A stretch of 64,000 nt of DNA, from positions 12,225 to 76,224 of the forward strand of contig JBLIRO010000001.1 of assembly GCA_049472335.1 (NCBI GenBank), given 5' to 3'. Positions within the stretch are counted from its first letter, which is position 1. Each line of letters begins with the position of its first letter. This stretch comes from a bacterium (GTDB taxonomy: Bacteria; SZUA-182; DTGQ01; JAFGSM01). The position numbers were made by a program, and so were the translations under genes. The notes beneath the pieces are model-generated. The model ran no database searches. It was given only the letters and a program-made list of their open reading frames with translations, and was not told the origin of the DNA. Of the stretch, positions 43,101 to 58,262 are shown piece after piece.

Positions 43101-43591
43101 CAACCAAGCCCGCTGAACGGCAAATATGGAGACCCATACAATGATAGTGATGAATAAAATGGAGCCGCTATCAGCCGGGGGCTTACAGATGGGCTTTCAT
43201 TTGATGAAGCTGCGGATTCCAGACCCAACGAAGATGTATTTAACAATGGCAGAGAATCTGAGTGCGAAGAGGCCCAAAGAGGGCTTAGGAGGCTTGGAGT
43301 CTCCTCGTAAGAGGTCCAATATGGGCCCAAAAAACTCGGATAAACGGATGATGCCCGGGGGGTCAGAAAAAAGTTTGGAACTATGGATGGTTGAGAAAAA
43401 AAGTAATTCCCATATAAATTGCCAGGTAATATATTACCAAATATCGATGCTACAAAATTTGAAGATATATAATAAGGGTATGAAAATGGCTGTAATGTCT
43501 GAGCCTGAGCACTTACCGCCGCTATACAGCATATTATTGAAATCAGTATTATTGCTGTATAAATCTTTTGTCTTATGTTAAGACTTTTCAT
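37187..43591 (-). CDS. Alpha-2-macroglobulin family protein (MG domains + alpha/alpha-toroid TED-like domain + receptor-binding-like C-terminus); no canonical thioester
   Basis: The 2134-aa product has a signal peptide and a TED-like region (DGAWSWFPGGPANFYMTLYIMTGF). The thioester position reads YQHECSTSAF rather than CGEQ. The ATG at 43591 is preceded by a GGAGGA RBS. Confidence 0.7.
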   Translation of the reverse strand: MKSLNIRQKIYTAIILISIICCIAAVSAQAQTLQPFSYPYYISSNFVASIFGNILPGNLYGNYFFSQPSIVPNFFLTPRASSVYPSFLGPYWTSYEETPSLLSPLWASSHSDSLPLLNTSSLGLESAASSNESPSVSPRLIAAPFYSSLSLYGSPYLPFSGLGWPFDTLYLRTGLWAWPATPPTDEDLERLWGKIGEAIENGLPVTAIDRLEEFIPIALEKEKYGLAMKGICKQLVLEANIQGDKPEEKIIRLTEEIENAPDLLKPLLKLVLAQWYWQYYQENRWRFSERDATAVIDESDFTTWDLPRLFDKIDELYTEVLSKEEQLKSMSMETFSDFFEQGTVPVSYRPTLFDFAAFSAISFYQDGDQLRNEPEDAFELDADSDAFAPAADFILYTPETTDTSSPVLKAMKLYQKVLGFHINDSSKEAFVDADINRLAFIKGYSFGEEKSSHYMTRLSEIAETYSYMSLSSLAYYYWAQELYGQDNYVEAHRIAKIGEAQHTGSYGSNMCRSLLSQIEAKEMTLQSEYSVTPSYSEVRIDYRNIDKVHFRVVKDQWDEFLEETYSSPYYIDNDKFQELIQAIPAKSWSLDLEPTIDYKTHSHAIDLPSLEPGYYRLIASWREDFAEDKNAIRIVTFWVTEIAMVTKSIDGTAGGFILDAHSGAPLEGAVITIFIQNSEGNYYQAAVTYTDEKGSFTVPNPSNRTRVLHAKYQGYELLGWSGYTYEREENGEYKRTIFFTDRAIYRPGQMIHFKVLAIKSNQDNDTYDFLPNTSLTIMFRDHNYQEVEHLDLITNAFGSASGTFTAPAGILAGNMTISCSQPSGSTSIRVEEYKRPKFRVTLDPPTAESRLDEEVELSGLAMAYTGAPIDYANVSYRVVREVRYPYWCWWRRYQSSSAREIAHGRLQTDSEGRFHIRFTARPDRSIPESDKPTFIFKVSADVTDGAGETRSASRRVNIGYVSMELNISASDWLTSDEPVELSVSAMTLDQQPLNAVGTITVFDLKQPQRPVRSSLLGQPMGESEDSVDESKWENWPENEAVASSQFNTSEGEHKVSFVLQPGVYKAIATAYDSHGEEVSAVLPIMVIDPGASDYNVPIPDMVKLKSTTLEVGDTLEAIWGTGYQEGHAFIEIEHRGQIVESYWTEAQNTQQKVTWPVLEGYRGGFFLHITQVHDNRAYISEERIDVPWTNKDLEVSFSSFRSKLDPGAEETWTIQIKGSEAEHVAAEMVATLYDSSLDLFQIHNWSGLGSIFRQDYSSLSIWFANNVSYPRSRTYEWNEYVSGYISRTYTRFPDDVIQNYGNYGYPGYYYGYGGGMYGYSESYSSYSYNSAQDADGADKTPAPPAYGGETAGSVEEPEEEIDLSQVSARTNLDETAFFFPHLLTDEEGRVSITFTIPEALTTWKFMGFAHARDLLWGMLSEETVTKKDLMVQPNPPRFFREGDILLFSAKVTNISDQGLNGTIRLTLSDASTGQSLDNEFQIGQPDQSFSVPANSSRSYYWEIEVPDDFTGALTHRVVASTGTLSDGEEACLPVLSNRIFVTESLPLPIRGAQTKIFSFDKLLESDASDTLEHQALTLQMVSNPAWYAVQSLPYLIEYQHECSTSAFNRLYANALARHIANSDPEIKSVFDQWRETDALDSNLEKNEELKSVLLEETPWVRAAESESEAKRRVGLLFDEDQMETSLSSAYYKLSQMQRSDGAWSWFPGGPANFYMTLYIMTGFGRLRHMNIDIQQDLAIRSLDYLDNSIKDRYEKIKQYGHPELNNLTSIIAMYLYGRSFYKDIQPIPDDCQEAVYYFLGQAAVYWLDLNSRLSQGHLALACNRFNDPVTANKIMASLKERSVSDEELGMFWRDLELSWWWFHAPIETQAVMIEAFDEVADDQTAVEDLKVWLLKQKQTQNWKTSKATADAVYALLLRGENLLASDQLVNVTLGDMLIVPETTEAGTGFYEKKFIREEVLSDYGQVTVEKLDDGIAWGSLHWQYLEDMSKVTPHEDTPLQLEKSLYVERQTTQGPVIEPVQGNLAVGDKIIVRIILRSDRDMEYVHMKDYRGSGTEPVNVLSQYKYQDGLAYYESTRDTATHFFIDYLPKGTYVFEYALRIQHKGEYQMGMASIQCMYAPEFNSHSASEFITVQ

Positions 43592-44029
43592 TTGTTTTTT
43601 CCTCCTTCTATCTATCGGTATTGCTGATCCGAAGGAGCCCCCCCTCTTCATGACAGCATTTTTAAATAAGGATACGAACGGATAGGCCGAACGTACAGGT
43701 CATATTTAATGCATATAACGTGCCTGTGTTTTATCCCCTTTCCTTCTCATTAGAAGTATTGGATGCATTTTTTTGTCTCTATATAATAGACGTAAAAACT
43801 TCTACAGTTTCCTACGAAAAAATCAAATGTTATTGATTTTTTATTGACAGGACTATCTATTCTCACATATACTTTCCCGTATTAAAATAGATACAAATTT
43901 TGCATTGTATTAATTTTCAAAGACAGGCTTGAGTCCATAATTGTCATTATATTTTTAATATAAGAGAAAAAAGTCTAAAAATCTAATGGACATCCCGGAG
44001 CGCCAAGGGGTGAAAAAGGAGGGGGAAAA

Positions 44030-44584
44030 ATGTTAGCAATGGATATACCCATAGCTTTAATGGCAGGTTTGGTTCTGGCTGAAGCAGGGAAAGATTTAAT
44101 CAGGAGTGAAGATGCATACAAAAAGGGATTTTTAAGGGCGGTTACTCTGGCATACGCAGCTATTTTTATTGCACCCACACCCGTTTATTACTTTTTGGGA
44201 TGGCCTGCCTGGGAGGTGAATTTCATATGGAAATGGGTGGATCACATTATTGATTCTCCTCTTAGGGCATCCTTTTCCTATGCCTTGCTGGCGTGTGCCG
44301 TTTTACCCACATACCTGGGTTTGAAACTGGGAGAATTCCTCATCAAAAAGAGACAGGATAAGTGGGTCCGTATCCTCTATATTTCAATGCTGGTCCTGGT
44401 GGGCATCATAATACTTCTTCTTAAAGATATTACCTTTAATGTTTCGAGTACTTATGCCAAATTTAAAGCAGGTGAATCTTATTCCTTCTGGTCCCATCCA
44501 TTTGTTACAGGTTGGGCCATTACATCTCTTTACTTCTGGGTATCTCTGGTGACTTTCTATCTCTGGCTCAGAAAAAAGAAGTAG
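44030..44584 (+). CDS. Small integral membrane protein, unknown function
   Basis: Strong RBS (AAGGAGGGGG) and four or five hydrophobic helices. Confidence 0.5.
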   Translation: MLAMDIPIALMAGLVLAEAGKDLIRSEDAYKKGFLRAVTLAYAAIFIAPTPVYYFLGWPAWEVNFIWKWVDHIIDSPLRASFSYALLACAVLPTYLGLKLGEFLIKKRQDKWVRILYISMLVLVGIIILLLKDITFNVSSTYAKFKAGESYSFWSHPFVTGWAITSLYFWVSLVTFYLWLRKKK

Positions 44585-44703: not shown

Positions 44704-44934
44704 CTATGCAGCAATTCTTTCATAATTAATTACTTCAATCTCCGGCAATTCTGTATTGTCTAAAAATTTTTCGATTTCAAGAATTGTTTCATTAGCCAGA
44801 TAAATCTCTCCACAGTTCTCACATACTAAACAAGGGATTTTTTTGATAATGAGTATTTGATCCTTTTCATAAAAAAGTTTATTAGTATTTCCAGAATTAA
44901 ATTTAGTATGTTTACAAACAAAGCATTTTTTCAT
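44704..44934 (-). CDS. YgiT-type zinc-finger protein (antitoxin-like)
   Basis: Two CxxC pairs are present: CFVCKH...CLVCENC. It overlaps a DUF4258 partner by 4 nt. Confidence 0.55.
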   Translation of the reverse strand: MKKCFVCKHTKFNSGNTNKLFYEKDQILIIKKIPCLVCENCGEIYLANETILEIEKFLDNTELPEIEVINYERIAA

Positions 44935-45251
44935 CTCTTTTTTCTCCTTTCAAAGCCCTCTTCCCAAATCTCTAGCCTTGGTTGATATGTTGTTATAAAA
45001 TAAATTTCAAAATCTTCAGCATTTATCCCAATAACCATATGCGAGGGCATCTTATCCCCTTTATAACCAAGAATTAAAAAAGACGAGAAAGGCTTGTCTT
45101 CATAATCGCTTTCTATTATTTTAAAATACTGAAGAGCAAAAAATATCTCTTTTGTCTTGATTTTTCTGCTTCTCATCTGTTCTAAGATGTGCTCTTTCCA
45201 AACAATGGAACCTTTTTTAATGCTCTCTTTTATAATTTTTTCAATATTCAT
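44931..45251 (-). CDS. DUF4258-like protein (toxin-like partner of YgiT zinc-finger protein)
   Basis: A 106-aa protein; this pairing with a YgiT-type gene is a recurrent toxin–antitoxin-like arrangement. Confidence 0.45.
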   Translation of the reverse strand: MNIEKIIKESIKKGSIVWKEHILEQMRSRKIKTKEIFFALQYFKIIESDYEDKPFSSFLILGYKGDKMPSHMVIGINAEDFEIYFITTYQPRLEIWEEGFERRKKR

Positions 45252-45409
45252 ATCTTATTGTTCACTCTAAAATTTTTTCATAATTATTGAGTTGACGGTT
45301 CCTAAGTCAAATTTCTTTTGCCATAATATGCTAAACATTAAACTTAAATGTCAAGGCAAGGGCTCTCCCCTTCTTCTAAATGTCAAAGGAACTGCCCCCG
45401 TGACATTGA

Positions 45410-45740
45410 CATACTCATCTTCATCTTCCCATTTAGGTCTGATAATTGGGATTATGGGATTATGTAATCATTAACGTCCCTAGCTTTTAAGTCAAAAATT
45501 AATTGTTAGAGTAACCAACCCTTTGACAAATAAGTAAGATTAGTAAACAACGTCCCTCATCTTCCCTCATCTTCCTCACATACTCATCTTCATCTTTCCA
45601 TTTAGGTCTGATAATTGGGATTATGGATTATGGGATTATATAATCATTAACGTCCCTAGCTTTTAAGTCAAAAATTAATTGTTAGAGTAACCAATCCTTT
45701 GACAAATAAGTAAGATTAGTAAACAACGTACCTCATCTCC
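45410..45740. repeat. Tandem direct repeat, 2 copies of ~165 bp at ~95% identity, with an internal GGATTAT heptamer copy-number difference
   Basis: Copy 1 spans 45410-45578 and copy 2 spans 45579-45738. Each contains TTGACAAATAAGTAAGATTAGTAAACAACGT. Confidence 0.85.
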
Positions 45741-45947
45741 CCTCTCATAAAAAGAAAAAAGAAGAAATCCATTTAAACTGGAAATATGTGCCCACCCACA
45801 ATTTAAAATTTTTCAATTTTTCAAATTATAATAAGATTACTAAAAAATAGAACCATCCCTTTTTCTCTAGTTTCCTCTAGTAATCTGTCCCCGTTTTTCT
45901 TAAATGGGTAACCTTATCTCCTTTAAAAACATGGGCTCAATTTTGCC

Positions 45948-48900
45948 TCAATAGAATCTGGGATCAGGAGAATGTGGAGCTGAAATTACCCCCCCTGATT
46001 GTGGTCTTCGAAAAGATGGGGAAGGTAAATGTATATGGTCAGGTGCTGTTTTGTCTATAATAGACCCTCCGGCTATAGTTACCGTCCTTATAGTAATTCC
46101 TCTAACTATTTTGTGAGAAATAGAAGTTGCAATTCCTGTTGCCGCTCCCCATATTAATCCTGCACCCATTGTACTAATCATAGGGATTGGATCTACCATT
46201 GGATTACGATTAATACCAATTTCATCTATTATGTTTCCACTTGGATCACGTGTAATCCATTCATTATCAGATGGAAGTTGATTTTTGGGTGAAGGATCTA
46301 GCCAATACGCTGGATTATTAAGAATTTCTTTTGGTGATGTGATATTCCCCCTTTCAGTAGTCTCATCCTTTGGTGAAAGTAAAGGACGTCCGTCATCTTT
46401 ACATGGCTTTTTACATAATCCTAGTGCATCGACAAAGTTAACCGGATTATTCCCCACATACCGATACAAATTAATATCCCCACCAGCAAACCCAATCGGA
46501 TCGGGGGTCAAGAATCTTCCAATTTTCGGATCATAGTACCTTGCTCGATAATAGTATAGTCCACTTTCTGGATCGTATTCTCTGCCAGTATAGGTGTATG
46601 GATTATTCAAAGCACTGGTTTGATCTACTATATTTCCAAAGGAATCGTAGGTGTATTCCTGTTGGGTATTTCCATAAATATCAAGAACTTGCACTATGCT
46701 TCCTAAAGCATCAAATAGGTAATAATATGAAATATCTCCTTGCTCCATTTGGATTGGTTCATCAATACCAAGGCCATGAGTGTAACGGGATGAGATATTG
46801 AAGCTGCCATTCAGGATAAATATAATATCTTCGTCATCATAGATATAATAGGTTTTAACACCATTCACTTCTTTGCAAATTCTTCTACCCAATCCATCGT
46901 AGTAGTAAAAAATGTTATTATTAGAAGTGTTAATTCCTATCAACCGATTTTCAGAATTATAGGTATAGTTTGTAGCTTGGCCTGTGGACTTATTGGTCTT
47001 TCGGGTAAGGCAACCATTAGTATATTGATATGTAAAATCCCCATCATCAAGAAGCCTGTTCCCTGTATCATAGCTCCAACCGGATGTGAGAGCAGAAGAG
47101 AGACGATTTCCCGCTGTATCGTAAGTAAAGGTTTCTGTATCAATGGATGGATGAGCCGCCTGGAGCAACTGATTGAGTTTATCATAGATATAATCATGAT
47201 CACCATCCAGATCTGTCATCTTTGTGCGATTCCCTACTGCATCATATTCATAGCTATAACCGGATATAGTAAATGAATCGAGATTATGATTCAGAGAAGA
47301 AAGATCACCATTGGAATTATAGCTGTAAAGAGAGGAGAGATTATTGGGTAATGTTTTTGAAGTTCTTCGGTTATTTTGATCATATGTAAAGCTTGTAGTC
47401 TGGCCATTTGGATCTGTAATTGTAGTAGGACTATCGAGTTCATTATAGGTGTAATTGGTTACCGAGCCATAGGGATCGGTAATACTCAACCGATTACCAT
47501 TGGAATCATAGGTGTAAGTGATTGTTGTTTGTGGTTGATAGGCGCTGGCTGCCGTCCGGGCAGTAATGGGCCGATTATTATTGTCATAGCTGAAGGAGAG
47601 AGAAGAAAAGGGATTGGTAATGCCGATGATATTGTCCACCTGATCGTAGCTATAAGTAGTCATGCTTCCATCAGCCAAAATCTTTTTTGTCATGCGGTCA
47701 AGACTGTCATACTCATAGTTTATTTTGTCGCTGTTATAGAGTGTTTTTTGAATCAGGTTTCCATTCTTATCATAAGTATAAAATTCTTGCTCTCCTAAAG
47801 GATTAGTCATAGACACCTTACGATTTAGATTATCATAGCTAAAGGTGGTGGTCTGCCCTTTGGCATCGGTAATGGCAAGAAGATTGCCATTTCCATCATA
47901 AACAAATGTGGTTTGACCATTGAGTGGATCGATAGTTTTTATCATCCGATTCTCTAAGTCGTATTCATAGTAAAAAGTATTCCCTTTTGCATTGGTCATA
48001 GAGATGCGATTTCCCATAGCGTCATAGGTATAAGTTGTCTGATTGCCAAGCGGATCGGTCTCTTTGATTAAACGGTTAAGGGCATCGTATTCATAAGCAG
48101 TAGTGGCGCCTTTTGCGTCCATGCTGGTCAAGATATTATCATTGTTGTCATATGTGTAAGTGATTTCATTCCCTAAAGGATCTATGATCTTGACAAGCCT
48201 GTCTTTGCTGTCATATTGGTATTGAGTTGTATTCCCATTTGCATTTGTCATAGAGATACGATTTCCCATAGCGTCATAAGTAAAACTTATTTGCCCTCCT
48301 TCGGGATCAATAAGATTTGTTAAATTATTCATAGCATCATAGGCATAAGTGGTAATATGTCCTAATGAATCAGTAACTGAGATTATATTTCCCGCAGCAT
48401 CATAGGTGTAAGAGGTTACATTTCCCAGGGCATCGGTTTTTTTAATCATATTGCCAAATGAATCATATTCATAAGTGGTAGTGGCACCATTGGCATTTGT
48501 AATAGTATGAACAAGCCCGTTGCTGTAATAGGTCATGGTTGTTGTATGACCAATCGGGTTTGTGACTTTGACTGGATTTCCCTTGGTATCGTAATTAAAG
48601 GTAGTGACCCTGCCTAAGGGATCGGTTATGGTTTTAACTTTATTGAAGGTGCTCTCATACGTATAGATAGTGGTATTCCCTTCTCTATCTGTATAAAAAA
48701 GAAGATTGCCTTTATCATCATATCCTTTTTGGACGGTGGCACCATCAGGGGTATGGATTTTAGTGACATTACCTGATTCCGTATCACGTTCATATGTTGT
48801 GACATTATTTAAAGCATCTGTTTTACTCAATAAGCGTCCATATTTATCTGTTTTCATATGTGTCATATTCCCCTCAGGATCTGTGTACAGATCATCATGA

Positions 48901-51900
48901 GGTAATTGAACTGAGACAGGATTTCTGTATGTCCCGATATTTTCGGGAAGATCGTTTATTAAACCTGACCCGTCAGAAGGAGCGTATTGGTCAATCCCTT
49001 CATCAGGCCAAACAACACTATTAACCATGCCATGAATGTTATAGTTGAACTGGGTAGTCCTGCCAAGAGGATCGGTTTTAGATGTCATAAGATGTTGGTT
49101 ATCATAAGTGAAATTTGTGTTTGATCCATCCGGAGCAATGATTTTAATAAGGTTATTGTCAGCGTCATGGCTAAATTGTGTAGTCCTTCCGGCAGGATCG
49201 CTGATTGAAGCAAGGTTATGGCCGTTGTAAGTAAAAGCAGTAACAAGATCTGCCGGATCGGTAATACTTGCCAATCTGTCATTTGCATCATAGGCATAAG
49301 TTGTGGTCCGGCCATTGGTGTCTGTCTTGGAGGTCTGGAGTCCCTTAGCATTGAATTGATACGTTGTACCATCTTTCATAATGCGGGTGTAGGTGCCATC
49401 ATCATGGCGGGTGAGTTTGGAATAATCTCCTTCAGGTGAAGAAAGTTCCGAAGTTCTAATTCCAAATCCGATATCCTTTATTATCCTGATGCAGTGATTT
49501 ATCAAGTCAGCAATATATAAGTTTCCTGCTCCATCAATTTTTACCATCCTCGGCCAATCCAAGTCTGCCTCAGTCGGGGGGCCTCCATCTCCTGAATAAC
49601 CCCTAGTTCCTGTTCCTGCTATAGTGGTAATTATACCATTGGGATCTACACGCCGTATTCGATTATTACTAAAGTCAGCAATATAGATATATGATCCGTC
49701 AACTTCTACTCCACAGGGATTTCTGAGACACGCCTGTGTAGCAGGGCCCCCATCTCCTGAATAACCCCTGATTCCAGTTCCTGCTATGGTGGTGATTATA
49801 CCGGTAGAGGTGTCCACTCTTCGTATACAACTATTATCCCTGTCAGAAATATACAGATTTCCTGCGGCATCGGTTTCTGCATTAAAGGGACGATTTAAGC
49901 TTGCCTGTGTAGCAGGACCTCCGTCTCCTGAATAGCCCCTGATTCCATTGCCTGCATAAGTAGTGATGATACCGGCAGGATCTATTCGCCGCACACGGTC
50001 ATTTTCTCTGTCAGCAATATATACATTTCCTGCTGCATCAACTGATATCCCTGTCGGAGAGTTAAAGCTTGCCTGTGTAGCAAGGCCTCCGTCTCCTGAA
50101 TATCCTGCTGTTCCGGTACCTGCTATAGTGGTGATGATACCGGCGGGATTTATTCGCCGTATGCTATGATTACCATAGTCAGAAAAATAGATATTTCCAG
50201 CTCTATCAACCGCAATTCCCCAGGGATAAAATATACTTGCCTGTGTAGCAGGCCCGCCGTCTCCTGAATAGCCTATCGTTCCTGTCCCTGCTATAATGCT
50301 GACTACACCAGTGGGGTCGACTCGCACTATGCGTTGGTTATTAGAGTCTGCAATATAGAGATTTCCTTCTGCATCGGCTGCTATCCCATTAGGAGTGTTA
50401 AAGGTTTCCTGTGTAATCGGACCTTGAAAATCTTTTACATAAGTTTTAATGGTGCCTCCAGTATCAAAATACAATTTTTCTCCTGAACCTGAGACAAGCG
50501 TGACATAGTTATCATAAGAATTGCCATAGATCCTTTGCAGTTCGGCAATACTCCAACCTGCACCAATCGGACTGTTAATCCGGTTATCAATGCTGATTTT
50601 GCCCTTAAATTCCCTTTTTAAAGGAAAATCTCGTGGTGCCCGTATAGGATTACCCAGACTATCTAAGACTAATCCCCCCGACTGGGAGGCAAACCATGGA
50701 GCAGCATTGTAATAAGCGGGACACCAATTAATTAGCTCGATAAGATAAGGAAAGCCGCCGGAGGGCAGCTTTTCTCCTCTAAAATTTGTTCCATCAAATA
50801 AATACCTGAAGCTTATATTGTCATTTTTGGGTAAAAAGACACGGCTTGTGTTTATCCCGCCTATATTTACTTTGAATTCTACCTTTTCAATTAAGGCCAC
50901 CTGATTTGAGTCCATTTCATATTCCAGAGAAATCATCGCCTTGGGATCGGCAGAATTGCTTCTATAGAAAAGTGATACGGTATGAGAGGCCCCTATTGAA
51001 TTGTATGCCGGCAGATGATAATCCTCAATCAATTCCCCGTCTTTATAGATGACTTTGCATCCTCCCTTTCCATCCTTATCACTGGATGCAGGGTTATTTT
51101 TTTTTCGACTGGTGTTTTTTACCGGTATTTTTTTTAGTGCTTCGGAGCTTGATGAAGGCCTTGAACCATAGTTTAAATCATACGAACTGAAGTGGACTAC
51201 AAAATACTCCATATATTTTCCATCTTCTGTGATCACACCCATGCCATCGGGAACCCATCTTCCCAGATCCTTACGATAATAGCCCACCGGTACAGGGGTG
51301 CCGGGAGCAAAACCAAGGGAATTTTCTACCAGTATTCGCGTGGGTTTCTCCAAGGTCAAGCCGTCAGGTGTTAGTTTAACAGCAGTGGTAAAATGAGAAG
51401 TAGGGGGCAAATCACCAGGAAGCTCTCGATTGTCGTAGAGCCGCGTAGCTGAAACATTAACTGCTTCTGTCACGGAATTAACCTCAAAATGGAGCTCAAC
51501 ATCACCGGTAGAATTAATCAGTGTTCCTCCATCCTCGGGCGTAATTGTAACAGTTACCGGATCAATGGGAACAAGGTAAATAGGTTCAACTGCAAAATCA
51601 TACCCTGATTGGACATGAATTCGCCTTTGGGCATAAGTGTATCCTTCTTTTTCAATCAGGATTAGATAAAACCCTTCTTTTGGAGTAGGGAAAGAAAATT
51701 TCCCATTTGCATCTGTCATCATCTGGCCCACATTGGCCATTTTAATGGTTGCACTCTCTAAAGGTGCTTCAGTTCTGGCATCAAAGACCTCACCATCGAT
51801 AAAGCCTGATTTTTCAACGATAGTTGGAGTAAGATAGCATAGATCAGATCCATTACAATCCTCATCAATGCCATTACATTGAATTTCAGTTGCGCCAGGA

Positions 51901-53120
51901 TATGCCCCGGGATTTTGATCATGACAGTCTCCGCTCTCTGCCGTATAGCCATCGAAGTCCAGATCTGCCAGGTGAGGAGATGGTGCATCCTTGCCATCAC
52001 AATTTTCATCAATGCCATTCTCGGGAAAATCTGTGGCACCAGGGAAGACAGCAGGATTATTATCATCACAATCCCCTTGCCCAACTGACCAAAGATCTCC
52101 ATCGGCATCATTCAAAACACACGGAAGGTCCTCTCCGCTGCAATCCTGATCTGTATTGTCCTCACATATTTCCGCAATTCCGGGATTAATATTTGGATCG
52201 TTGTCATCACAATCTTGTGGTCCACAAGTACTTCCTTCAATAGAGAAGCCGTCACCATCGGTATCAGTACAACATATCGAATCCTTTCCATTGCAGTCCT
52301 GATCAATACCGTCTTCACAGATCTCAGAAGCGCCAGGGAAAATACTGGCATTGTTGTCATCACAGTCGCCTCCGCAGGTAGTAATATTATCTCCATCTGA
52401 ATCAAAGCCCTCATCTGTTAATGCATTGCAATTATCATCAATATTATTGCAGATTTCGTTGGCATCCGGATTTATATTTGGATCGGTATCATTGCAATCC
52501 CGAGGACCACATAAACCACTTTCAATGGCAAAACCGTCTTCATCAAAATCAGTACAAACAATAGGTCCTCCACTCCCATCAACAATTAACAGGGTTTTGT
52601 TATCTGTATTACTTAGGAGAATCCAATATCCTTTGGAAGGTTCAAGATATTCGGATTCAAGGATTCGTTTATATCCAATCCCTCTTACATAGCCATATAT
52701 CACTTCAATATTGCCATTTTGCACTGAAGCCTTAGCAGGACATGTACAACCACCAATCATAAGCCATCCATCCTCAGATATTGTTTGGTTATACGATTGA
52801 AAGATTGTACCGTTTACACTATATGCTTGGTTTTGATCTAATAGTATCCAATAGCCCTTACCACTCTCGAGTTCTTCATTGTCGGCAACTCGAACATACC
52901 CTATCCCCTTTTTATAACCATAAATAACAACTGCACCAGGGAACAATGATGAAACATAGGCGTTTACAGGTATAACTGGAAGTGAAATCATACTCCAACC
53001 TGCAGGGAAATCCAGATTATTACTTATATTTTCTGCTCCGGCATAAGGAAGATAAACTATTAATAAAGCTATCAATACAAAACAAAAAGACATATAAAAG
53101 ACATTAGTGTTATTTTTCAT
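45948..53120 (-). CDS. Giant secreted teneurin-like polymorphic-toxin protein: Cys-rich MopE-type repeats + carboxypeptidase-regulatory (TTR-like) domain + NHL beta-propeller + YD-repeat shell + RHS core + C-terminal variable domain
   Basis: The 2390-aa product has a signal peptide from the ATG at 53120 (RBS GGGGA). It carries five DxDGDG...DCDD...CDGxDxDC repeats. The NHL repeats read …NLYIADxxNxRIRRVD…IAGTG…GYSGDGGPAT. There are many YD repeats (YTYDxxGN). The RHS core ends …YYDPKIGRFLTPDPIGFAGGDINLYRYVGNNPVNFVDALGL, followed by about 170 aa of unrelated C-terminus. Confidence 0.85.
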   Translation of the reverse strand: MKNNTNVFYMSFCFVLIALLIVYLPYAGAENISNNLDFPAGWSMISLPVIPVNAYVSSLFPGAVVIYGYKKGIGYVRVADNEELESGKGYWILLDQNQAYSVNGTIFQSYNQTISEDGWLMIGGCTCPAKASVQNGNIEVIYGYVRGIGYKRILESEYLEPSKGYWILLSNTDNKTLLIVDGSGGPIVCTDFDEDGFAIESGLCGPRDCNDTDPNINPDANEICNNIDDNCNALTDEGFDSDGDNITTCGGDCDDNNASIFPGASEICEDGIDQDCNGKDSICCTDTDGDGFSIEGSTCGPQDCDDNDPNINPGIAEICEDNTDQDCSGEDLPCVLNDADGDLWSVGQGDCDDNNPAVFPGATDFPENGIDENCDGKDAPSPHLADLDFDGYTAESGDCHDQNPGAYPGATEIQCNGIDEDCNGSDLCYLTPTIVEKSGFIDGEVFDARTEAPLESATIKMANVGQMMTDANGKFSFPTPKEGFYLILIEKEGYTYAQRRIHVQSGYDFAVEPIYLVPIDPVTVTITPEDGGTLINSTGDVELHFEVNSVTEAVNVSATRLYDNRELPGDLPPTSHFTTAVKLTPDGLTLEKPTRILVENSLGFAPGTPVPVGYYRKDLGRWVPDGMGVITEDGKYMEYFVVHFSSYDLNYGSRPSSSSEALKKIPVKNTSRKKNNPASSDKDGKGGCKVIYKDGELIEDYHLPAYNSIGASHTVSLFYRSNSADPKAMISLEYEMDSNQVALIEKVEFKVNIGGINTSRVFLPKNDNISFRYLFDGTNFRGEKLPSGGFPYLIELINWCPAYYNAAPWFASQSGGLVLDSLGNPIRAPRDFPLKREFKGKISIDNRINSPIGAGWSIAELQRIYGNSYDNYVTLVSGSGEKLYFDTGGTIKTYVKDFQGPITQETFNTPNGIAADAEGNLYIADSNNQRIVRVDPTGVVSIIAGTGTIGYSGDGGPATQASIFYPWGIAVDRAGNIYFSDYGNHSIRRINPAGIITTIAGTGTAGYSGDGGLATQASFNSPTGISVDAAGNVYIADRENDRVRRIDPAGIITTYAGNGIRGYSGDGGPATQASLNRPFNAETDAAGNLYISDRDNSCIRRVDTSTGIITTIAGTGIRGYSGDGGPATQACLRNPCGVEVDGSYIYIADFSNNRIRRVDPNGIITTIAGTGTRGYSGDGGPPTEADLDWPRMVKIDGAGNLYIADLINHCIRIIKDIGFGIRTSELSSPEGDYSKLTRHDDGTYTRIMKDGTTYQFNAKGLQTSKTDTNGRTTTYAYDANDRLASITDPADLVTAFTYNGHNLASISDPAGRTTQFSHDADNNLIKIIAPDGSNTNFTYDNQHLMTSKTDPLGRTTQFNYNIHGMVNSVVWPDEGIDQYAPSDGSGLINDLPENIGTYRNPVSVQLPHDDLYTDPEGNMTHMKTDKYGRLLSKTDALNNVTTYERDTESGNVTKIHTPDGATVQKGYDDKGNLLFYTDREGNTTIYTYESTFNKVKTITDPLGRVTTFNYDTKGNPVKVTNPIGHTTTMTYYSNGLVHTITNANGATTTYEYDSFGNMIKKTDALGNVTSYTYDAAGNIISVTDSLGHITTYAYDAMNNLTNLIDPEGGQISFTYDAMGNRISMTNANGNTTQYQYDSKDRLVKIIDPLGNEITYTYDNNDNILTSMDAKGATTAYEYDALNRLIKETDPLGNQTTYTYDAMGNRISMTNAKGNTFYYEYDLENRMIKTIDPLNGQTTFVYDGNGNLLAITDAKGQTTTFSYDNLNRKVSMTNPLGEQEFYTYDKNGNLIQKTLYNSDKINYEYDSLDRMTKKILADGSMTTYSYDQVDNIIGITNPFSSLSFSYDNNNRPITARTAASAYQPQTTITYTYDSNGNRLSITDPYGSVTNYTYNELDSPTTITDPNGQTTSFTYDQNNRRTSKTLPNNLSSLYSYNSNGDLSSLNHNLDSFTISGYSYEYDAVGNRTKMTDLDGDHDYIYDKLNQLLQAAHPSIDTETFTYDTAGNRLSSALTSGWSYDTGNRLLDDGDFTYQYTNGCLTRKTNKSTGQATNYTYNSENRLIGINTSNNNIFYYYDGLGRRICKEVNGVKTYYIYDDEDIIFILNGSFNISSRYTHGLGIDEPIQMEQGDISYYYLFDALGSIVQVLDIYGNTQQEYTYDSFGNIVDQTSALNNPYTYTGREYDPESGLYYYRARYYDPKIGRFLTPDPIGFAGGDINLYRYVGNNPVNFVDALGLCKKPCKDDGRPLLSPKDETTERGNITSPKEILNNPAYWLDPSPKNQLPSDNEWITRDPSGNIIDEIGINRNPMVDPIPMISTMGAGLIWGAATGIATSISHKIVRGITIRTVTIAGGSIIDKTAPDHIHLPSPSFRRPQSGGVISAPHSPDPRFY

Positions 53121-53480
53121 AGCATTCCCCTTAAATAAATTTATTTCATTGCCATTAAATTTCATAAGGAATTGCTTTAAAATAAATAATGAATAGGATT
53201 TGCTTTCCTGTATAAAAGTATAAGCAGAGCTTTCGACTTTTGTTTAAAAAGCTCCTATCTGCATCGTATAGCTCATTTACTAAAATATGGAAGATTTTTA
53301 ATGTCTCACAAACATATCAAATCGCTTGCAAAAAAACAACTGTAGAAGCAGTTTCCAACTAATTATTTTTTTTATAAACTTTTATCCTTCGGTGTGATCC
53401 ATAGATCATGAGTGTTTAGCAAAAGATGAATCTGGTAAATTTCAATCTCTGGCTAAGAAAAAAGAGATAGATGAAATCAT

Positions 53481-53567
53481 CTATCTCTTTTTTGCAATGA
53501 ATAAGGCATTGATATCATTATCAGTAAAATAATGGATTGCCAGCCTTAATATTAGTCTTGGTCTTCA
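53481..53567 (-). CDS. Tiny ORF (28 aa, GTG start) VKTKTNIKAGNPLFYCNDINALFIAKKR, a paralogue of the neighbouring 19-aa ORF
   Basis: The SD GGGGGTG lies 9 nt upstream. The N-terminus matches the 53655-53714 ORF with mainly synonymous differences. The 3' end overlaps an A/T-rich palindrome (53458-53493). Confidence 0.35.
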
Positions 53568-53654
53568 CTTTTAATTCACCCCCTTTTTATTGGAAGAAGA
53601 ACGTGTCACAAGGTCTTTTTCAATATATAATCTTGAGTTTTAAAAGATTAGTGT

Positions 53655-53714
53655 TTAGTATGACCACCAGGGTTTGACATCCACTCCGGCTTTAATGTAG
53701 GTTTTGGTCTTCAT
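53655..53714 (-). CDS. Tiny ORF (19 aa) MKTKTYIKAGVDVKPWWSY with a strong Shine–Dalgarno site
   Basis: The SD AGGAGGTG lies 7 nt upstream of the ATG. The paralogue 90 nt downstream conserves the first 10 aa. Confidence 0.45.
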   Translation of the reverse strand: MKTKTYIKAGVDVKPWWSY

Positions 53715-53915: not shown

Positions 53916-53945
53916 AAATCATAGTTGACAAAACAGGGAGATTTT

Positions 53946-55496
53946 ATGTCCTTTACCCGGTCCCTCAGATTTATATATACTGAAAGATCTCGTCTTCCTT
54001 TATGGGGAATCTTTATTCTTATCATTCTCCTTACCTGCTGGATGGTATGGTTTTCTTCCGTAAAGATTCCCATTTATACAATGACGGATTCAGCCCGCCT
54101 AGAAGTGGATCAGGCTTCACACCCCATACAAACATCCATTGATGGAAAGATCACAGAGATTTCCATGAAGCTCGGACAGGAGGTCCAGGTTGGAACAATC
54201 CTGGTCAGATTGGATGATCAGTCCCTTCAGTTGAGAAGAAAAGAAGCGCTGGACCGGTTCAACTCTCTCTCCGCCGAAGCATCGGCCCTGGAAAAACAGA
54301 TATCCCAGGAAGAAATGCTCCTTGAAGAGGAAGGAAAAATCGTCCTTATAAAACTTCAGGAGGCGCGATCCCGTTATCAAGAAGGAGAGATAGCGGCAGT
54401 ATTCGCGGAGGATGAAGTCAAACGTTTAAACAAGCTTTTCACCCAGGGGGCACTATCTGAGTCAAAACTTTTACACGCTAAATCCGAAGCCGAAAAGAAA
54501 AGGGCGTCTGCAGAAGCGCTTCGTATCGCCCTTGACAGGCTAAGAGGGGAATGTCAGGTCCAGGAGAAGAGACGCCAAACGCGCTTGAGTCAACTCAGGC
54601 AGCAACTGCTTCACATTCAGGGAGAGATTCAGAACAGCGCCACGGTAATGGAGCAGCTCGACTGGGAGATTGAGAAGCACCTTATCAGGACTCTGGTGGC
54701 CGGCGAAATTGCCGAGATTGCCGACCTTCATCTCGGGATGTTTATTGAAGAAGGATATAGGCTAGGCGCCATTCTGCCCCAGGGCAAGCTCCGTGTGGTG
54801 GCATATTTTGAGCCGGCAGTCGCCCTTGGCAAGGTTCACCCCGGCCAGAAGGCTCATCTGAGGATGAAGGGCTTTTCCTGGCTGGAATACGGCCGGGTGG
54901 CGGCAAGGGTCCAGAAGGTAAGCCAGGAGATCCGCCACGGACAGTTGCGGGTCGATCTGGAGGTCGACGATAAGGACAGCCCCATCCCTCTGCAGCATGG
55001 TCAGCCGGTAAGGGTCGAGATTGAAACCGAAAGGATTACCCCAGCAACACTGGTTCTGCGAAAAGCGGGAAATGTCTTTTCCCCCGGGTCTCCTTCCGTT
55101 TCCATCAATAATCATTCCCTGACCGTGGAAGTTGTTGCCACCAGAGCAGCAAGACAGCGGGGCCTGATGTACCGGGAAATGCTTCCGGCCGATCATGGGA
55201 TGTTGTTTGTTTTCCCAAGGGAAGGCCCTCTTTCATTCTTGATGAAAGATACGTTTATCCCGCTCAGTATAGCCTTTCTTAATTCCGAAGGGATCATCCT
55301 GAAGATTATGAAAATGTATGTTGAACCTACGAATAATGAAGCGTTGTCTAGAACATATGCCACGGACCCTCATGCGCCTGCTATGTATGCCCTGGAAGTG
55401 AATCAGGGCTGGTTTGAAAGCCATGGGGTTAGACGTGGAAACCGGGTAAAAGGTCTCAAACGATTGAATATCGGCTTTGTAGAATCCCAGGCCTGA
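53946..55496 (+). CDS. HlyD-family periplasmic adaptor (type I / bacteriocin secretion) fused to a C-terminal DUF192/UPF0127 domain
   Basis: The N-terminal TM helix, lipoyl-like domain, long coiled coil and beta-barrel are typical of HlyD. The C-terminal ~110 aa (…RGLMYREMLPADHGMLFVFPREGPLSFLMKDTFIPLSIAFLNSEGII…YALEVNQGWF…GNRV) match the UPF0127/DUF192 consensus. Confidence 0.75.
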   Translation: MSFTRSLRFIYTERSRLPLWGIFILIILLTCWMVWFSSVKIPIYTMTDSARLEVDQASHPIQTSIDGKITEISMKLGQEVQVGTILVRLDDQSLQLRRKEALDRFNSLSAEASALEKQISQEEMLLEEEGKIVLIKLQEARSRYQEGEIAAVFAEDEVKRLNKLFTQGALSESKLLHAKSEAEKKRASAEALRIALDRLRGECQVQEKRRQTRLSQLRQQLLHIQGEIQNSATVMEQLDWEIEKHLIRTLVAGEIAEIADLHLGMFIEEGYRLGAILPQGKLRVVAYFEPAVALGKVHPGQKAHLRMKGFSWLEYGRVAARVQKVSQEIRHGQLRVDLEVDDKDSPIPLQHGQPVRVEIETERITPATLVLRKAGNVFSPGSPSVSINNHSLTVEVVATRAARQRGLMYREMLPADHGMLFVFPREGPLSFLMKDTFIPLSIAFLNSEGIILKIMKMYVEPTNNEALSRTYATDPHAPAMYALEVNQGWFESHGVRRGNRVKGLKRLNIGFVESQA

Positions 55497-55520
55497 CCTG
55501 ACACACACAGGATTTTTTAA

Positions 55521-58262
55521 ATGCTTGTTTCTCTTATCAAAAAACAGAAAAAATCTTTTATCCCGGAGGTCATTCAAAGCTCGGCCATGGATTGCGGTCC
55601 GGCTTCGCTCAAGGCCCTTCTGGAAGGATTCGGCATCCCGGTAAGTTATGGGCGGCTCCGCGAAGCATGTCAGACCAGTGTGGATGGAACGTCCATTGAC
55701 ACACTGGAGGAAGTTTCCAATCAGCTCGGCCTTGAAGCAGAGGAGATCATGCTCCCCCCGGATCACTTCTTTCTCCCGGAAGCGAAGGCCCTGCCCGCTA
55801 TAGTCGTGGTCCGGCTCCCAAGCGGTGTGACCCATTTTGTAGTGGTCTGGGAACGCCATGGCCCTTTTGTACAGGTCATGGACCCGGGCAGCGGAAGACG
55901 CTGGGTCACCTATAAACAGTTCATGAAGGAGGTTTATATCCACCGCATGCCCGTTTCTGCCTCTCTTTGGAGGGAATGGGCAGGATCTGAGGCCTTTCTC
56001 TCTCCCTTCAAAAGGCGCCTGACTCAGCTTGGGATTTCTCAAAGGGAGCAAAAGGAGCTCATTCATCATTCCCTTTCAGACCCTGGCTGGTATCATCTTG
56101 GTGTCCTGGATGCCGCCACCCGAATGGTGGATGCCCTCATGAAAGCCGGTGGACTGCAAAGAGGTCGGGAAGCGGCAAAGGTGCTTCAAACATTTGTCCC
56201 GGAATCCCTTTCAAAGGGTCCTTTTCAGGAATCTCCCATCCCTCCCGTTTACTGGTCCATCCAGCCCATGCCTTCAGCCAGTGACGGGGAGGAGGAACAA
56301 CTGATCCTCAAGGGAATGGTCCTTGTAAGGGTATCAGGCCGCCGTTCGATCCCCTCTGATCAAAAGAAGCAGGATTTTACAGAAAAGGCTCCCCTCCCCC
56401 TGGAGCTTGAGGCAGCCCTTAAAGAACCTCCGGTCAAGCCGGGAAGGGAAATCTTAAGATTCCTCCGGGCCGATGGCATCCTGACTCCCTTAGCCCTGGG
56501 TTTTGCCTTTATTCTTGTATCCTTTGGCTTTATTCTGGAGGCCATATTATTGCGGAGCCTTTTTGAGATCGGAAGGGACCTGAACCTGATAGAACAAAGA
56601 TTAGGCGCAATGGGGGCCCTTATCATCTTTTCCCTTGCCCTGCTGTTGTTAGAGCTCCCTATTGGCTCATGCATCTTAAAACTGGGGCGGCATCTGGAAT
56701 CCCGGCTCAGGATAGCGTTTTTGCAAAAGCTCCCCCGGCTTCAGGACCGCTATTTCCAGAGCCGGCTCAATTCGGACATGGCGGAACGATCTCACAGTGT
56801 TAACAAGATAAGGCTTTTACCCGGATTGGGCAGCCGGTTTGTACGCTCTATAATAGAGTTCTTCATCACTGCCGCGGCCATTGTGTGGCTCTTTCCGGAA
56901 AGTCTTTTAATAGTCCTGGCAGGCGTTTTCCTCACCATCATTATACCGCTTGCCAGCCTGTCATTCCTCACGGAAAGGGACCTTCGGGTACGAAGCCATC
57001 TGGGGGCCTTAAGCCGTTTTTACCTGGATACACTTCTGGGGCTTGTCCCCACGAGGGCACATAGCGCTCAAAAACCTATATGCAGGGAACATGAAAGCAT
57101 GCTCGTGGAATGGAGCAGGGCAAGCCTTCGTAATGTGATCGCTGTACTGACTGTGGAGGCAGTTCAGGACCTGATCGGGTTCGGTATCGCCTTCTGGCTG
57201 CTCCTGCACTATTATAAACGGGGAGGGCCTGAAAGCGGCGTACTTCTCCTGGTTTACTGGGGTCTACATCTATCCGCGCTGGGCCAGGAAATTATAAAAA
57301 CAGCCCGCCAGTATCCTACCCATCGCAATATCGCCCTGCGTCTCATGGAGCCTTTAGGGGCTCCTGAAGAAAACTCCTCCCGGGGAGGGGATTTGTCCCA
57401 AACGAAGGACTCATCTCCTTCAAAAAACAATCTTTCTCATGGGATCTCCATATCCATGGAAGGGGTGGGTATAAAGATCTCCGGTCACAACATATTAGAA
57501 GGCGTGGACCTTGCCATTCCGCCCGGTGCCCATTTCGCAATCATCGGACCATCCGGAGCTGGAAAATCAAGCCTGGTCGGCCTTCTCCTGGACTGGTACC
57601 GTCCGTCCGCGGGAAAGATCCTGATCAATGGAAGGCCTCTTACACCTGAAGTATTGGAAAATATGCGCAAGTCCACCGCCTGGATCGATCCGGCTATACA
57701 GCTTTGGAACCGCTCCCTTATAAAGAACATTTACTACGGCATCGATCCTGAATCAGCCTCTCCTGCCGGAATGGTCATGGAAGAGGCCCAGCTTATGGAA
57801 CTTCTGGAGAAATTACCTCAAGGCCTGGGAACAATCCTGGGAGAAGGCGGAGCACTGGTTTCCGGAGGGGAAGGCCAAAGGGTGCGCCTGGCACGGGCCA
57901 TGGCAAAGGGCGATGTCCGTCTTGTAATCCTGGATGAGCCATTTCGGGGGCTCGACCATCAAAAAAGGGATGAGCTTCTCAATAAGGCCCGCTGCCTCTG
58001 GAAGGATGCCACCCTGATCTGCATTACGCACGATATCAGCGCCACAAAGAGCTTTGACAGGGTCATTGTCATAGAGCATGGGAAGATTGTCGAGCAGGGG
58101 GCCCCGAAAGACCTCGCGGAAAAGGCGGATTCCTTTTACCGGAAATATCTGGATTTTGAAAAAGCGGTCACAGAAGAGATTTGGCGTAAATCATTGTGGA
58201 GGAGGATCTCCATCAAAAAGGGAAGGATTATAGAGGAGGGAGTCCCTGATGGAAAGGTTTGA
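55521..58262 (+). CDS. Peptidase-C39-domain ABC transporter (bacteriocin/peptide processing-export, permease + ATPase)
   Basis: The C39 catalytic Cys (SAMDCGPASL) and His (THFVVVW) are present, followed by six TM helices. The ATPase carries Walker A GPSGAGKSS, signature LSGGEGQR and Walker B LVILDE. Confidence 0.85.
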   Translation: MLVSLIKKQKKSFIPEVIQSSAMDCGPASLKALLEGFGIPVSYGRLREACQTSVDGTSIDTLEEVSNQLGLEAEEIMLPPDHFFLPEAKALPAIVVVRLPSGVTHFVVVWERHGPFVQVMDPGSGRRWVTYKQFMKEVYIHRMPVSASLWREWAGSEAFLSPFKRRLTQLGISQREQKELIHHSLSDPGWYHLGVLDAATRMVDALMKAGGLQRGREAAKVLQTFVPESLSKGPFQESPIPPVYWSIQPMPSASDGEEEQLILKGMVLVRVSGRRSIPSDQKKQDFTEKAPLPLELEAALKEPPVKPGREILRFLRADGILTPLALGFAFILVSFGFILEAILLRSLFEIGRDLNLIEQRLGAMGALIIFSLALLLLELPIGSCILKLGRHLESRLRIAFLQKLPRLQDRYFQSRLNSDMAERSHSVNKIRLLPGLGSRFVRSIIEFFITAAAIVWLFPESLLIVLAGVFLTIIIPLASLSFLTERDLRVRSHLGALSRFYLDTLLGLVPTRAHSAQKPICREHESMLVEWSRASLRNVIAVLTVEAVQDLIGFGIAFWLLLHYYKRGGPESGVLLLVYWGLHLSALGQEIIKTARQYPTHRNIALRLMEPLGAPEENSSRGGDLSQTKDSSPSKNNLSHGISISMEGVGIKISGHNILEGVDLAIPPGAHFAIIGPSGAGKSSLVGLLLDWYRPSAGKILINGRPLTPEVLENMRKSTAWIDPAIQLWNRSLIKNIYYGIDPESASPAGMVMEEAQLMELLEKLPQGLGTILGEGGALVSGGEGQRVRLARAMAKGDVRLVILDEPFRGLDHQKRDELLNKARCLWKDATLICITHDISATKSFDRVIVIEHGKIVEQGAPKDLAEKADSFYRKYLDFEKAVTEEIWRKSLWRRISIKKGRIIEEGVPDGKV

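Follow-up and report, generated by a model that had tools for sequence, protein, structure and literature searches.

A probable bacterial teneurin-like protein with an undescribed N-terminal module and an orphan C-terminal domain

Gene structure and N-terminal region

The window, i.e. the whole stretch of 64,000 nucleotides analysed here, contains on its minus strand an open reading frame at positions 45948..53165, which encodes 2405 amino acids and is open up to the ATG at 53165. As an AAGGGG ribosome-binding site is located 7 nt before a second ATG at 53120 (Met16) and none is found before ATG 53165, the second ATG is the likelier start and gives a protein of 2390 amino acids. The initial annotation had placed the end of the gene at this same ATG; the strand of the gene was missing from it. 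Residue numbers are counted throughout from ATG 53165. From the N- to the C-terminus the order is signal peptide, duplicated β module, five MopE repeats, transthyretin (TTR)/CarboxypepD_reg-like domain, TIP domain, FN-plug, six-bladed NHL propeller, YD shell, Rhs core and C-terminal domain (CTD), the arrangement of a bacterial teneurin-like protein (TLP; Table 1). Domain-model searches detected each of the NHL, RHS_repeat, Rhs core, CarboxypepD_reg and MopE elements proposed earlier, and matches to EGF, ABD and Tox-GHH were absent.

Table 1. Features of the gene and its product in the window. BiTLP denotes the TLP of Bacillus inaquosorum CW14.
Feature	Positions	Strand	Residues	Remarks
Whole TLP gene	45948..53120	minus		probable start ATG 53120, stop codon 45948-45950
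Sec-type signal peptide (predicted)	53034..53120	minus	16-44	MKNNTNVFYMSFCFVLIALLIVYLPYAGA, followed by ENIS; hydrophobic core with Kyte-Doolittle mean >2
Duplicated all-β module	52557..53033	minus	45-203	motifs GWSMISLPV...VIYGY..GIGY.R...GKGYWILL, x2
Five MopE-type Cys-rich repeats	51831..52556	minus	204-445	Pfam PF11617 (Cu-binding_MopE) 140 bits, 5 stretches
Transthyretin-like/CarboxypepD_reg domain, TTR position of TLPs	51561..51818	minus	450-535	PF13620
TIP (teneurin insertion protein) domain	51171..51560	minus	536-665	phmmer against BiTLP, E = 6.5e-9
FN-plug	50451..51170	minus	666-905	phmmer alignment to BiTLP
Six-bladed NHL β-propeller	49467..50450	minus	906-1233	TEN_NHL 125 bits, NHL 90 bits
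YD-repeat shell	46650..49466	minus	1234-2172	RHS_repeat 447 bits, 17 stretches; YD_repeat_2x 368 bits
Rhs-associated core	46416..46649	minus	2173-2250	TIGR03696 (Rhs_assc_core) 95.9 bits
Orphan CTD	45951..46415	minus	2251-2405	155 aa, 16.8 kDa, pI 8.0
Hydrophobic Gly-zipper segment of CTD	46116..46187	minus	2327-2350	IPMISTMGAGLIWGAATGIATSIS; G2336xxxG2340xxxG2344

The cleavage site of the predicted signal peptide, between AGA and E, was assigned by eye, and a lipobox is absent from residues 16–44. Export by the neighbouring C39 ABC transporter via a double-glycine leader was considered and rejected, since the protein begins with a classical Sec signal peptide.

The duplication that the initial annotation had noticed near the N-terminus was recovered by aligning the two halves of the all-β module (approximately residues 55–120 and 132–195), which gave a score of 129 compared to 28 ± 6 for 300 shuffled sequences. 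Its predicted structure reached a pLDDT of 95.7 and has no close solved fold. The module belongs to an undescribed family found at the C-terminal position in other proteins of uncultured bacteria, and it is not among the types of N-terminal module listed for TLPs (PMC13018210). Its most likely role is to tether the protein to the cell surface or to present it there. It is a stand-alone domain, with which other secreted proteins from related uncultured bacteria end C-terminally.

All five MopE repeats counted earlier were detected by the Pfam model, four of them also by a regular-expression search. The parallel drawn between these Cys-rich repeats and teneurins was an over-reading, as MopE repeats are not homologous to the EGF/Cys-rich region of teneurins. 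The only element in common with MopE-type copper-binding proteins is the short Cys-rich PF11617 repeat, and the name of the repeat does not establish metal binding. The MopE repeats belong to a large set of interchangeable N-terminal modules. Relatives retain the TLP chassis with altered N-terminal modules: in one, at 62% identity, the first module is different and the MopE repeats number three, and a second relative has no MopE repeats.

The teneurin-like chassis

Bacterial TLPs were described by Jackson et al. 2018 (PMC5851990) and were characterised as polymorphic toxins, with 139 TLP-positive genomes in six phyla, by Raoelijaona et al. (Nat Commun 2026, PMC13018210). Members of the family combine variable N-terminal adhesion modules and Sec signal peptides with a TIP domain, which is present in 96% of them, and an encapsulated, hypervariable CTD with a mean mass of ~15 kDa (PMC13018210; PMC5851990). 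The structure of BiTLP has been solved by cryo-EM (9PT5 and 9IFO, PMC13018210).

The CarboxypepD_reg/transthyretin-like domain of the initial annotation held in its generic form. The CarboxypepD_reg model matched residues 456–521 with 32.6 bits in the whole protein and 38.7 bits in the isolated segment (cut-off 32.3), and the domain is collinear with the TTR domain of BiTLP (pairwise E = 5e-5), but the Pfam teneurin TTR model (PF25020, TTR_TEN1-4), which BiTLP matches with 85 bits, gave no match here. The ~370 amino acids from this domain to the NHL propeller correspond to the TIP domain and the FN-plug, both of which had been overlooked. Alignment of the TIP domain with those of relatives revealed conserved motifs with invariant columns, namely LPPTS.[FY]T.AV, N.L.F.[PV]G..VP.G[YF]Y and a W.

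For the FN-plug, homology was visible in just two comparisons, the full-length alignment and a one-to-one test. In the former, phmmer aligned residues 741–1740 with BiTLP residues 756–1781, and the FN-plug part of this alignment (741–905) runs into the NHL propeller; in the latter, the segment alone matched BiTLP with E = 1.4e-6, its first ~75 residues being unalignable. A PDB-wide search with the segment alone returned nothing. The FN-plug loop, which is cleaved in BiTLP, contains a Cys in both proteins; Cys703 lies close to the position of BiTLP C719. A counterpart of the conserved Ser present at the BiTLP autocleavage site (between G723 and S724) is not evident: the loop is unalignable by HMMER, MAFFT sets KDG-E opposite KEG-S of BiTLP, and one relative (L030) has QNG-E. 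Judged from the sequence, the putative FN-plug lies directly upstream of the NHL propeller and the TTR-like domain is followed by the TIP domain, as expected of TLPs.

The multi-blade NHL propeller of the initial annotation proved to consist of six blades with an exact period of 56 residues (cores at 934, 990, 1046, 1102, 1158 and 1214) and five GYSGDGG motifs, and the score of the teneurin model TEN_NHL (PF25021) compares with a cut-off of 27.1. The YD repeats and the Rhs core were likewise found as proposed. The YD shell aligns to that of BiTLP and to the shells of T6SS Rhs proteins. The Rhs core terminates in ...DPIGFAGGDINLYRYVGNNPVNFVDALGL and its aspartyl autoprotease residues R2209, D2222 and D2246 are intact; they align without gaps to R2103, D2116 and D2140 of BiTLP at the identical spacing of 13 and 24 residues, and cleavage is predicted after L2250. 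The second protease motif is DALG in place of DPxG.

The best matches of the protein in the PDB were 9pt5_A (E = 5e-144) and 9ifo_A (E = 3.6e-143), both named "Teneurin-like protein"; the alignment consists of four collinear segments, which correspond to TTR/TIP, to FN-plug up to YD, to YD and to the Rhs core. Together with the agreement of Pfam and NCBIfam models, the six NHL blades and the BiTLP-like spacing of the Rhs residues, these matches indicate that the gene likely encodes a bacterial TLP, a Sec-exported polymorphic toxin which by homology would carry an enclosed, self-cleaved CTD. The chassis and its order from the TTR-like domain through the Rhs core are identical to those of BiTLP, and in both proteins a short CTD follows the ...GL cleavage site. 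The N-terminal modules differ, BiTLP having BIG domains instead of the duplicated β module and MopE repeats.

T6SS Rhs effectors (RhsA 7Q97, Tse5 8CP6, Tre23 7PQ5) and TcB-TcC cocoons (6H6G) also enclose a self-cleaved polymorphic toxin in a YD cocoon and share the Rhs core motif, and structures of T6SS Rhs proteins and TcC match the YD shell and Rhs core with E = 1e-68 to 1e-13. It is nevertheless extremely improbable that the protein is a conventional Rhs effector delivered by a T6SS or a TcB/TcC-type cocoon which carries NHL repeats by chance. These matches are limited to shell and core, while the TLP match, stronger by ~75 orders of magnitude, also spans TTR, TIP, FN-plug and NHL, elements which the T6SS and Tc proteins do not have. 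Their delivery proceeds by PAAR/VgrG or TcA rather than by Sec and surface modules; the protein described here carries a Sec signal peptide, PAAR, VgrG and TcB N-terminal domains are absent from it, and no T6SS or Tc genes were found among the scanned ORFs of the window, from which several smaller ORFs were left out.

The teneurin-like domain order and the kinship with the teneurin superfold recognised in the initial annotation were supported: both the NHL and the TTR-like domain were detected beside the Rhs elements, TEN_NHL scored above and TEN_YD-shell below threshold, and structures of chicken and mouse teneurins were matched with E of about 1e-37 to 1e-23. Metazoan teneurins (for example chicken Ten2 6FB3 and mouse Ten3 6FAY) are membrane proteins of type II that possess an intracellular domain as well as EGF repeats, whereas the bacterial protein has a signal peptide and MopE repeats. 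Furthermore, most of them are without the TIP domain present here, their Rhs protease is inactive while the catalytic residues are intact in our protein, and the latter, unlike them, would contain a small enclosed CTD. The complete bacterial TTR+NHL+YD+RHS arrangement had been called evolutionarily informative; it is already published, with the FN-plug included (PMC5851990, PMC13018210; structures 9PT5 and 9IFO).

A scan of contigs with residues 450–1300 as query yielded mostly NHL-only proteins. The nearest partial relative is labelled Omnitrophica, a label outside the six phyla of the 2026 survey.

The C-terminal domain and the downstream region

The tail behind the Rhs core is as unfamiliar as the initial annotation had stated, having no Pfam, NCBIfam or PDB match, and is 155 rather than ~170 amino acids long. 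No homologue of the CTD was found in a word-indexed search of 5.8 billion clusters, in an exhaustive phmmer search over 1.84 billion representative proteins or in a scan of JGI metagenome contigs; it has no relative in about 15 billion proteins. Pfam and NCBIfam searches at E <= 10 and E <= 0.01 revealed no family and no enzyme motif, the Pfam Gly-zipper families did not match, and the PDB sequences gave only a chance match at E = 0.71. Single-sequence AlphaFold2 prediction resulted in a pLDDT of 48 and a pTM of 0.14 with almost no secondary structure, a failure which does not prove that a fold is absent. Of the earlier suggestion of a new toxin fold, the lack of a match to any known toxin family thus stood, while structural support for it was nil. 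In its length, mass and lack of homologues, the domain fits the short, hypervariable CTDs of TLPs. The GC3 value drops from 0.34 in the gene body to 0.19 in the CTD; this shift agrees with a swapped cassette.

Residues 2327–2350 form a hydrophobic segment flanked by Pro-rich polar stretches, with a moderate Kyte-Doolittle 19-residue mean of up to 1.3. The CTDs of BiTLP and of our protein are unrelated in sequence and differ in length (93 aa in BiTLP), but both have a Gly/Ala-rich hydrophobic segment, a Pro-rich polar tail and Cys. Once directed to the periplasm of E. coli, the BiTLP CTD permeabilises the cells (PMC13018210). Based on the GxxxGxxxG pattern in a hydrophobic stretch, the BiTLP-like make-up, the lack of an enzyme motif and the lack of a predicted globular fold, we tentatively suggest that the CTD may not be an enzyme but a peptide that inserts into membranes and permeabilises them. 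Gly-zipper membrane toxins such as the CdiA-CT EC93 ionophore and the Tse4/Ssp6-type toxins of T6SS are short hydrophobic GxxxG-rich C-terminal peptides without an enzymatic motif, and those of polymorphic systems are accompanied by small membrane immunity proteins. No sequence similarity between them and the CTD is known; the GxxxG-rich hydrophobic C-terminal make-up is common to both, while an adjacent immunity protein is found only with the known toxins.

As TLP CTDs span many enzyme classes (PMC13018210), the CTD could also be a soluble enzymatic toxin whose fold is truly new and which would escape both sequence searches and structure prediction from a single sequence. The complete lack of homologues and a His-rich DHIH motif close to the C-terminus agree with such an enzyme. 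Its composition (12% Pro, 13% Ile) with long polar Pro-rich stretches and the almost complete absence of predicted secondary structure argue against it, a conserved catalytic motif is undefinable without homologues, and the Gly-zipper segment better suits a membrane peptide; we consider a new-fold enzyme very unlikely.

An immunity gene is located directly downstream of almost all TLPs (PMC13018210). In contrast, the 696-bp spacer downstream of the gene contains no same-strand ORF of at least 27 amino acids, and hence no adjacent immunity gene, and an Rfam scan of the spacer was empty. The locus is therefore a rare case; a downstream immunity gene is a usual accompaniment of TLPs, not a defining structural feature. 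The next genes past the spacer encode a DUF4258/YgiT-zinc-finger toxin-antitoxin pair, which was rejected as a source of immunity, being a self-contained module 0.7 kb off. A convergent ORF at 44030–44584 encodes a multi-TM protein of 184 amino acids.

The missing immunity gene would be explained if the protein served chiefly in surface adhesion or cell-cell recognition and had a decayed or non-toxic passenger as CTD, because such a protein needs none. This is also in line with the orphan CTD lacking a predicted fold, with the abundance of adhesion-type modules at the N-terminus and with a role of TLPs in communication or adhesion, which PMC13018210 left open. Decay is at odds with the CTD frame, which runs through 155 codons of AT-rich DNA without a stop, while stops abound in the two other frames, and which scores as coding (+0.11 bits/codon compared to -0.8 in the other frames). 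Moreover, intact autoprotease residues would be unexpected with irrelevant cargo. We therefore regard an adhesin with an irrelevant passenger as unlikely.

Proposed mode of action and implications

A polymorphic toxin of the TLP type would leave the cell via its Sec signal peptide. The duplicated β module and the five MopE repeats would act as variable display or adhesion modules, the former tethering or presenting the protein at the cell surface. They would precede the conserved chassis of TTR-like domain, TIP, FN-plug, six-bladed NHL propeller, YD shell and Rhs core. As in its solved homologue BiTLP, the Rhs core would cleave itself after Leu2250, the CTD would be held inside the YD shell with the FN-plug as closure, and it would be freed at the target cell. 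Points against this scheme are the missing adjacent immunity ORF, the FN-plug Ser that is not evident, DALG in place of DPxG and the moderate hydrophobicity of the Gly-zipper segment.

A further proposal, which we consider rather unlikely, is that the GWSMISLP...GYWILL module serves the uncultured lineage as a new domain for surface anchoring or sorting and has here moved to the N-terminus, or that the CTD acts as a membrane toxin of a new, immunity-independent kind. The shift of a normally C-terminal module to the N-terminus would be explained by the C-terminus of TLPs being reserved for the toxin. If true, such an anchor would be the first concrete clue to TLP display, and an immunity-independent membrane toxin could, for example, be directed against cells whose envelope is of another type.

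That bacteria possess the complete teneurin superfold is already established by structures and toxicity assays. The architecture described here is known, and only the two ends of the protein are unusual. The locus opens no new question; it is useful for cataloguing the cargo of polymorphic toxins or for asking how TLPs are displayed.

Domain organisation and family assignment

A sequence search of the PDB placed 9pt5_A and 9ifo_A, both named 'Teneurin-like protein', far in front (E = 5e-144), followed by the best T6SS Rhs protein (E = 3e-68) and teneurin-2 (E = 1e-37). Both entries originate from Raoelijaona et al. 2026 (PMC13018210), where teneurin-like proteins (TLPs) are defined by variable N-terminal adhesion modules followed by TTR, TIP, FN-plug, NHL, YD shell and Rhs core, with a hypervariable C-terminal domain (CTD) of ~15 kDa, cleaved and encapsulated within the shell. 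TLPs occur in 139 genomes from six phyla (PMC13018210), and the bacterial occurrence of the teneurin fold was already recognised in 2018 (PMC5851990). The alignment with the TLP of Bacillus inaquosorum CW14 (BiTLP) was collinear over TTR/TIP (452-645), FN-plug through YD (741-1740) and Rhs core (2145-2251). Judged by its sequence, the window protein is a further member of the known TLP family. The teneurin-like architecture described in the initial annotation is thus upheld, and its novelty is not.

The protein is encoded by the single long ORF at the locus. The end coordinate given initially, 53120, coincides with its second ATG. As AAGGGG is located 7 nt upstream of the second ATG (53120) and the first ATG (53165) has no ribosome-binding site, 53120 was taken as the start; residues are nevertheless counted from 53165. 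A classical signal peptide (aa 16-44, MKNNTN-hydrophobic core-PYAGA/E, cleavage site judged by eye) was found. Pfam and NCBIfam annotation recovered every domain named initially: five MopE repeats (140 bits), CarboxypepD_reg (32.6 bits for the whole protein, 38.7 bits for the segment, cut-off 32.3), TEN_NHL (125 bits) with NHL, 17 stretches of RHS_repeat (447 bits) and Rhs_assc_core (aa 2173-2250, 95.9 bits). Six blades with an exact 56-residue period make up the NHL domain. The proposed N-terminal duplication is real, scoring 129 versus 28 +/- 6 for shuffled sequences.

Single pieces were compared with the BiTLP reference sequence (Supplementary Data 4 of PMC13018210). The TTR (E = 5e-5), TIP (E = 6.5e-9) and FN-plug (E = 1.4e-6) segments each matched the corresponding segment, and the invariant TIP motifs were visible in a multiple alignment including three relatives from the databases; therefore, the ~370 residues between the TTR-like domain and NHL represent TIP and FN-plug. 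This stretch had been left blank in the initial annotation. The Rhs core aligned without gaps, with R2209, D2222 and D2246 corresponding to the catalytic R2103, D2116 and D2140 of BiTLP, and cleavage is predicted after L2250. The second protease motif is DALG instead of DPxG. The BiTLP FN-plug loop is cleaved before a conserved Ser, whereas the window TLP has KDG-E and a 62%-identical relative QNG-E in this unreliably aligned loop. The TTR-position domain matched the generic CarboxypepD_reg and not the Pfam teneurin TTR model, which BiTLP matches with 85 bits.

The C-terminal domain and its possible function

The CTD comprises the 155 residues after L2250 (16.8 kDa, pI 8). No relatives were detected in 5.8 billion protein clusters, by exhaustive phmmer of 1.84 billion representatives or in JGI metagenome contigs, and no family or structure matches in Pfam, NCBIfam or PDB. 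Its frame is coding (+0.11 bits/codon; the other frames abound in stops and score -0.8), and its GC3 of 0.19 versus 0.34 in the rest of the gene is as expected for an exchanged cassette. Since AlphaFold2 without alignment yielded almost no secondary structure (pLDDT 48, pTM 0.14), the new fold considered initially cannot be claimed.

A polar, proline-rich first half is followed by a segment of moderate hydrophobicity (2327-2350) containing a glycine zipper (G2336xxxG2340xxxG2344) and then by a proline-rich tail. The CTD of BiTLP is composed in the same way; it associated with membranes in simulation and, exported to the periplasm, rendered E. coli propidium-permeable (PMC13018210). Because of this likeness our preferred, still tentative, reading is that the window CTD may be a membrane-active peptide. 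One can speculate that Cys703 of the FN-plug loop and Cys2251/2255 of the CTD pair as a disulfide; BiTLP contains C719-C2216 (PMC13018210).

Several TLP CTDs are toxic to E. coli, and almost all TLPs are reported to have an immunity gene, usually directly downstream (PMC13018210). In contrast, the 696 bp after the window TLP stop codon contain no same-strand ORF of at least 27 aa, which is the main argument for the alternative that the CTD does not, or does not any longer, act as a toxin on kin. The 184-aa hydrophobic ORF is a long-shot immunity candidate, considered because it encodes the membrane protein nearest to the CTD; it gave no family match apart from a weak TauE-like resemblance (E = 0.016). 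This ORF runs convergent to the next genes downstream of the TLP gene (0.7 kb), the DUF4258/YgiT pair, a self-contained type II toxin-antitoxin-like module. The tandem repeat in the spacer has no Rfam match and no further copy within the window. A short-read contig of another sample (DRR851354) spans the same spacer with one repeat copy fewer, which may be real variation or assembly collapse.

Features of the window around the TLP gene
Feature	Position	Strand	Description
Two consecutive ORFs	4324-5217 and 5227-6120	plus	297 aa each
Multihaem cytochrome	27839-32368	minus	1509 aa; cytochrome c7-like and MtrC/MtrF-like multihaem domains
Alpha-2-macroglobulin, then LamG-like protein	36022-43651	minus	2154 aa; 225 aa
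Hydrophobic ORF	44030-44584	plus	184 aa; multi-TM as judged by eye
DUF4258 protein and YgiT/MqsA-type zinc-finger protein	44704-45251	minus	106 aa and 76 aa; overlapping genes
Spacer tandem repeat	45409-45744		176 bp unit, 1.9 copies, 92% identical
TLP ORF	45948-53165	minus	2405 aa
Hairpin after tiny ORFs	~53458-53493		perfect 16 bp and T-run; -19.6 kcal/mol, z = -4.8
Tiny ORFs MKTKTYIKAGVDVKPWWSY and VKTKTNIKAGNPLFY	53521-53568 and 53655-53714	minus	common leader MKTKT[YN]IKAG
Peptide-export system	53925-60369	plus	three genes

Neighbouring genes

The two tiny ORFs, both with a strong GGAGG/GGGGG ribosome-binding site, are located between the TLP gene and the divergent export operon and could encode exported signal or bacteriocin-like peptides cut after KAG. 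The accession numbering of their neighbours suggests that they are unannotated in the source record. The operon encodes an HlyD-family adaptor fused to DUF192 (523 aa), an ABC transporter with an N-terminal C39 peptidase domain (913 aa) and a second ABC protein (706 aa); among NCBIfam models it most resembles the NHLP bacteriocin export set, with all scores far under the cut-offs.

The surroundings are chromosomal and anaerobe-like, with genes for aldehyde:ferredoxin oxidoreductase and GH57 as well as those for the multihaem cytochrome and the alpha-2-macroglobulin; the window ORFs scanned included no T6SS, Tc or phage genes. The very large alpha-2-macroglobulin carries MG2, A2M, bMG10 and one CarboxypepD_reg domain, and the multihaem protein is suggestive of extracellular electron transfer by the host. 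The first 297-aa ORF matched the E1-E2 ATPase actuator region only; the pair may represent a P-type ATPase gene that has been split or frameshifted.

The N-terminal module and its exchange

For the N-terminal module (aa 45-203), which no Pfam or NCBIfam model covers and which has no second copy within the window, we identified 39 homologues (43-69% identity), all from metagenomes or MAGs. AlphaFold2 with their alignment gave a confident all-beta model (pLDDT 95.7, pTM 0.88). In most homologues that have flanking sequence at both ends, the module is C-terminal, preceded by SBBP, FG-GAP/VCBS, LVIVD or multihaem domains or by a short stub with a signal peptide; the homologues derive mostly from short contigs and are possibly fragments. 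This module, recurring C-terminally in many otherwise dissimilar secreted proteins of uncultured bacteria, looks like a lineage-specific terminal domain for anchoring or sorting. It is absent from the module types in Supplementary Fig. 1 of PMC13018210.

Over TTR, TIP and FN-plug, the N-terminal part of a TLP relative on a JGI contig (Ga0307378_10011085, 8850-11651), which stops within the NHL domain, shares 62% identity with the window TLP. The chassis is kept in this relative, but the protein begins with another module and has three instead of five MopE repeats. In an 'Omnitrophica' relative, MopE repeats are lacking and Ig-like modules are present. From these comparisons, the N-terminal differences are read as the modular exchange described in PMC13018210. 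The window TLP is distinguished within its family by an undescribed N-terminal beta module, an orphan and possibly membrane-active CTD and the lack of an immunity gene next to its own gene.
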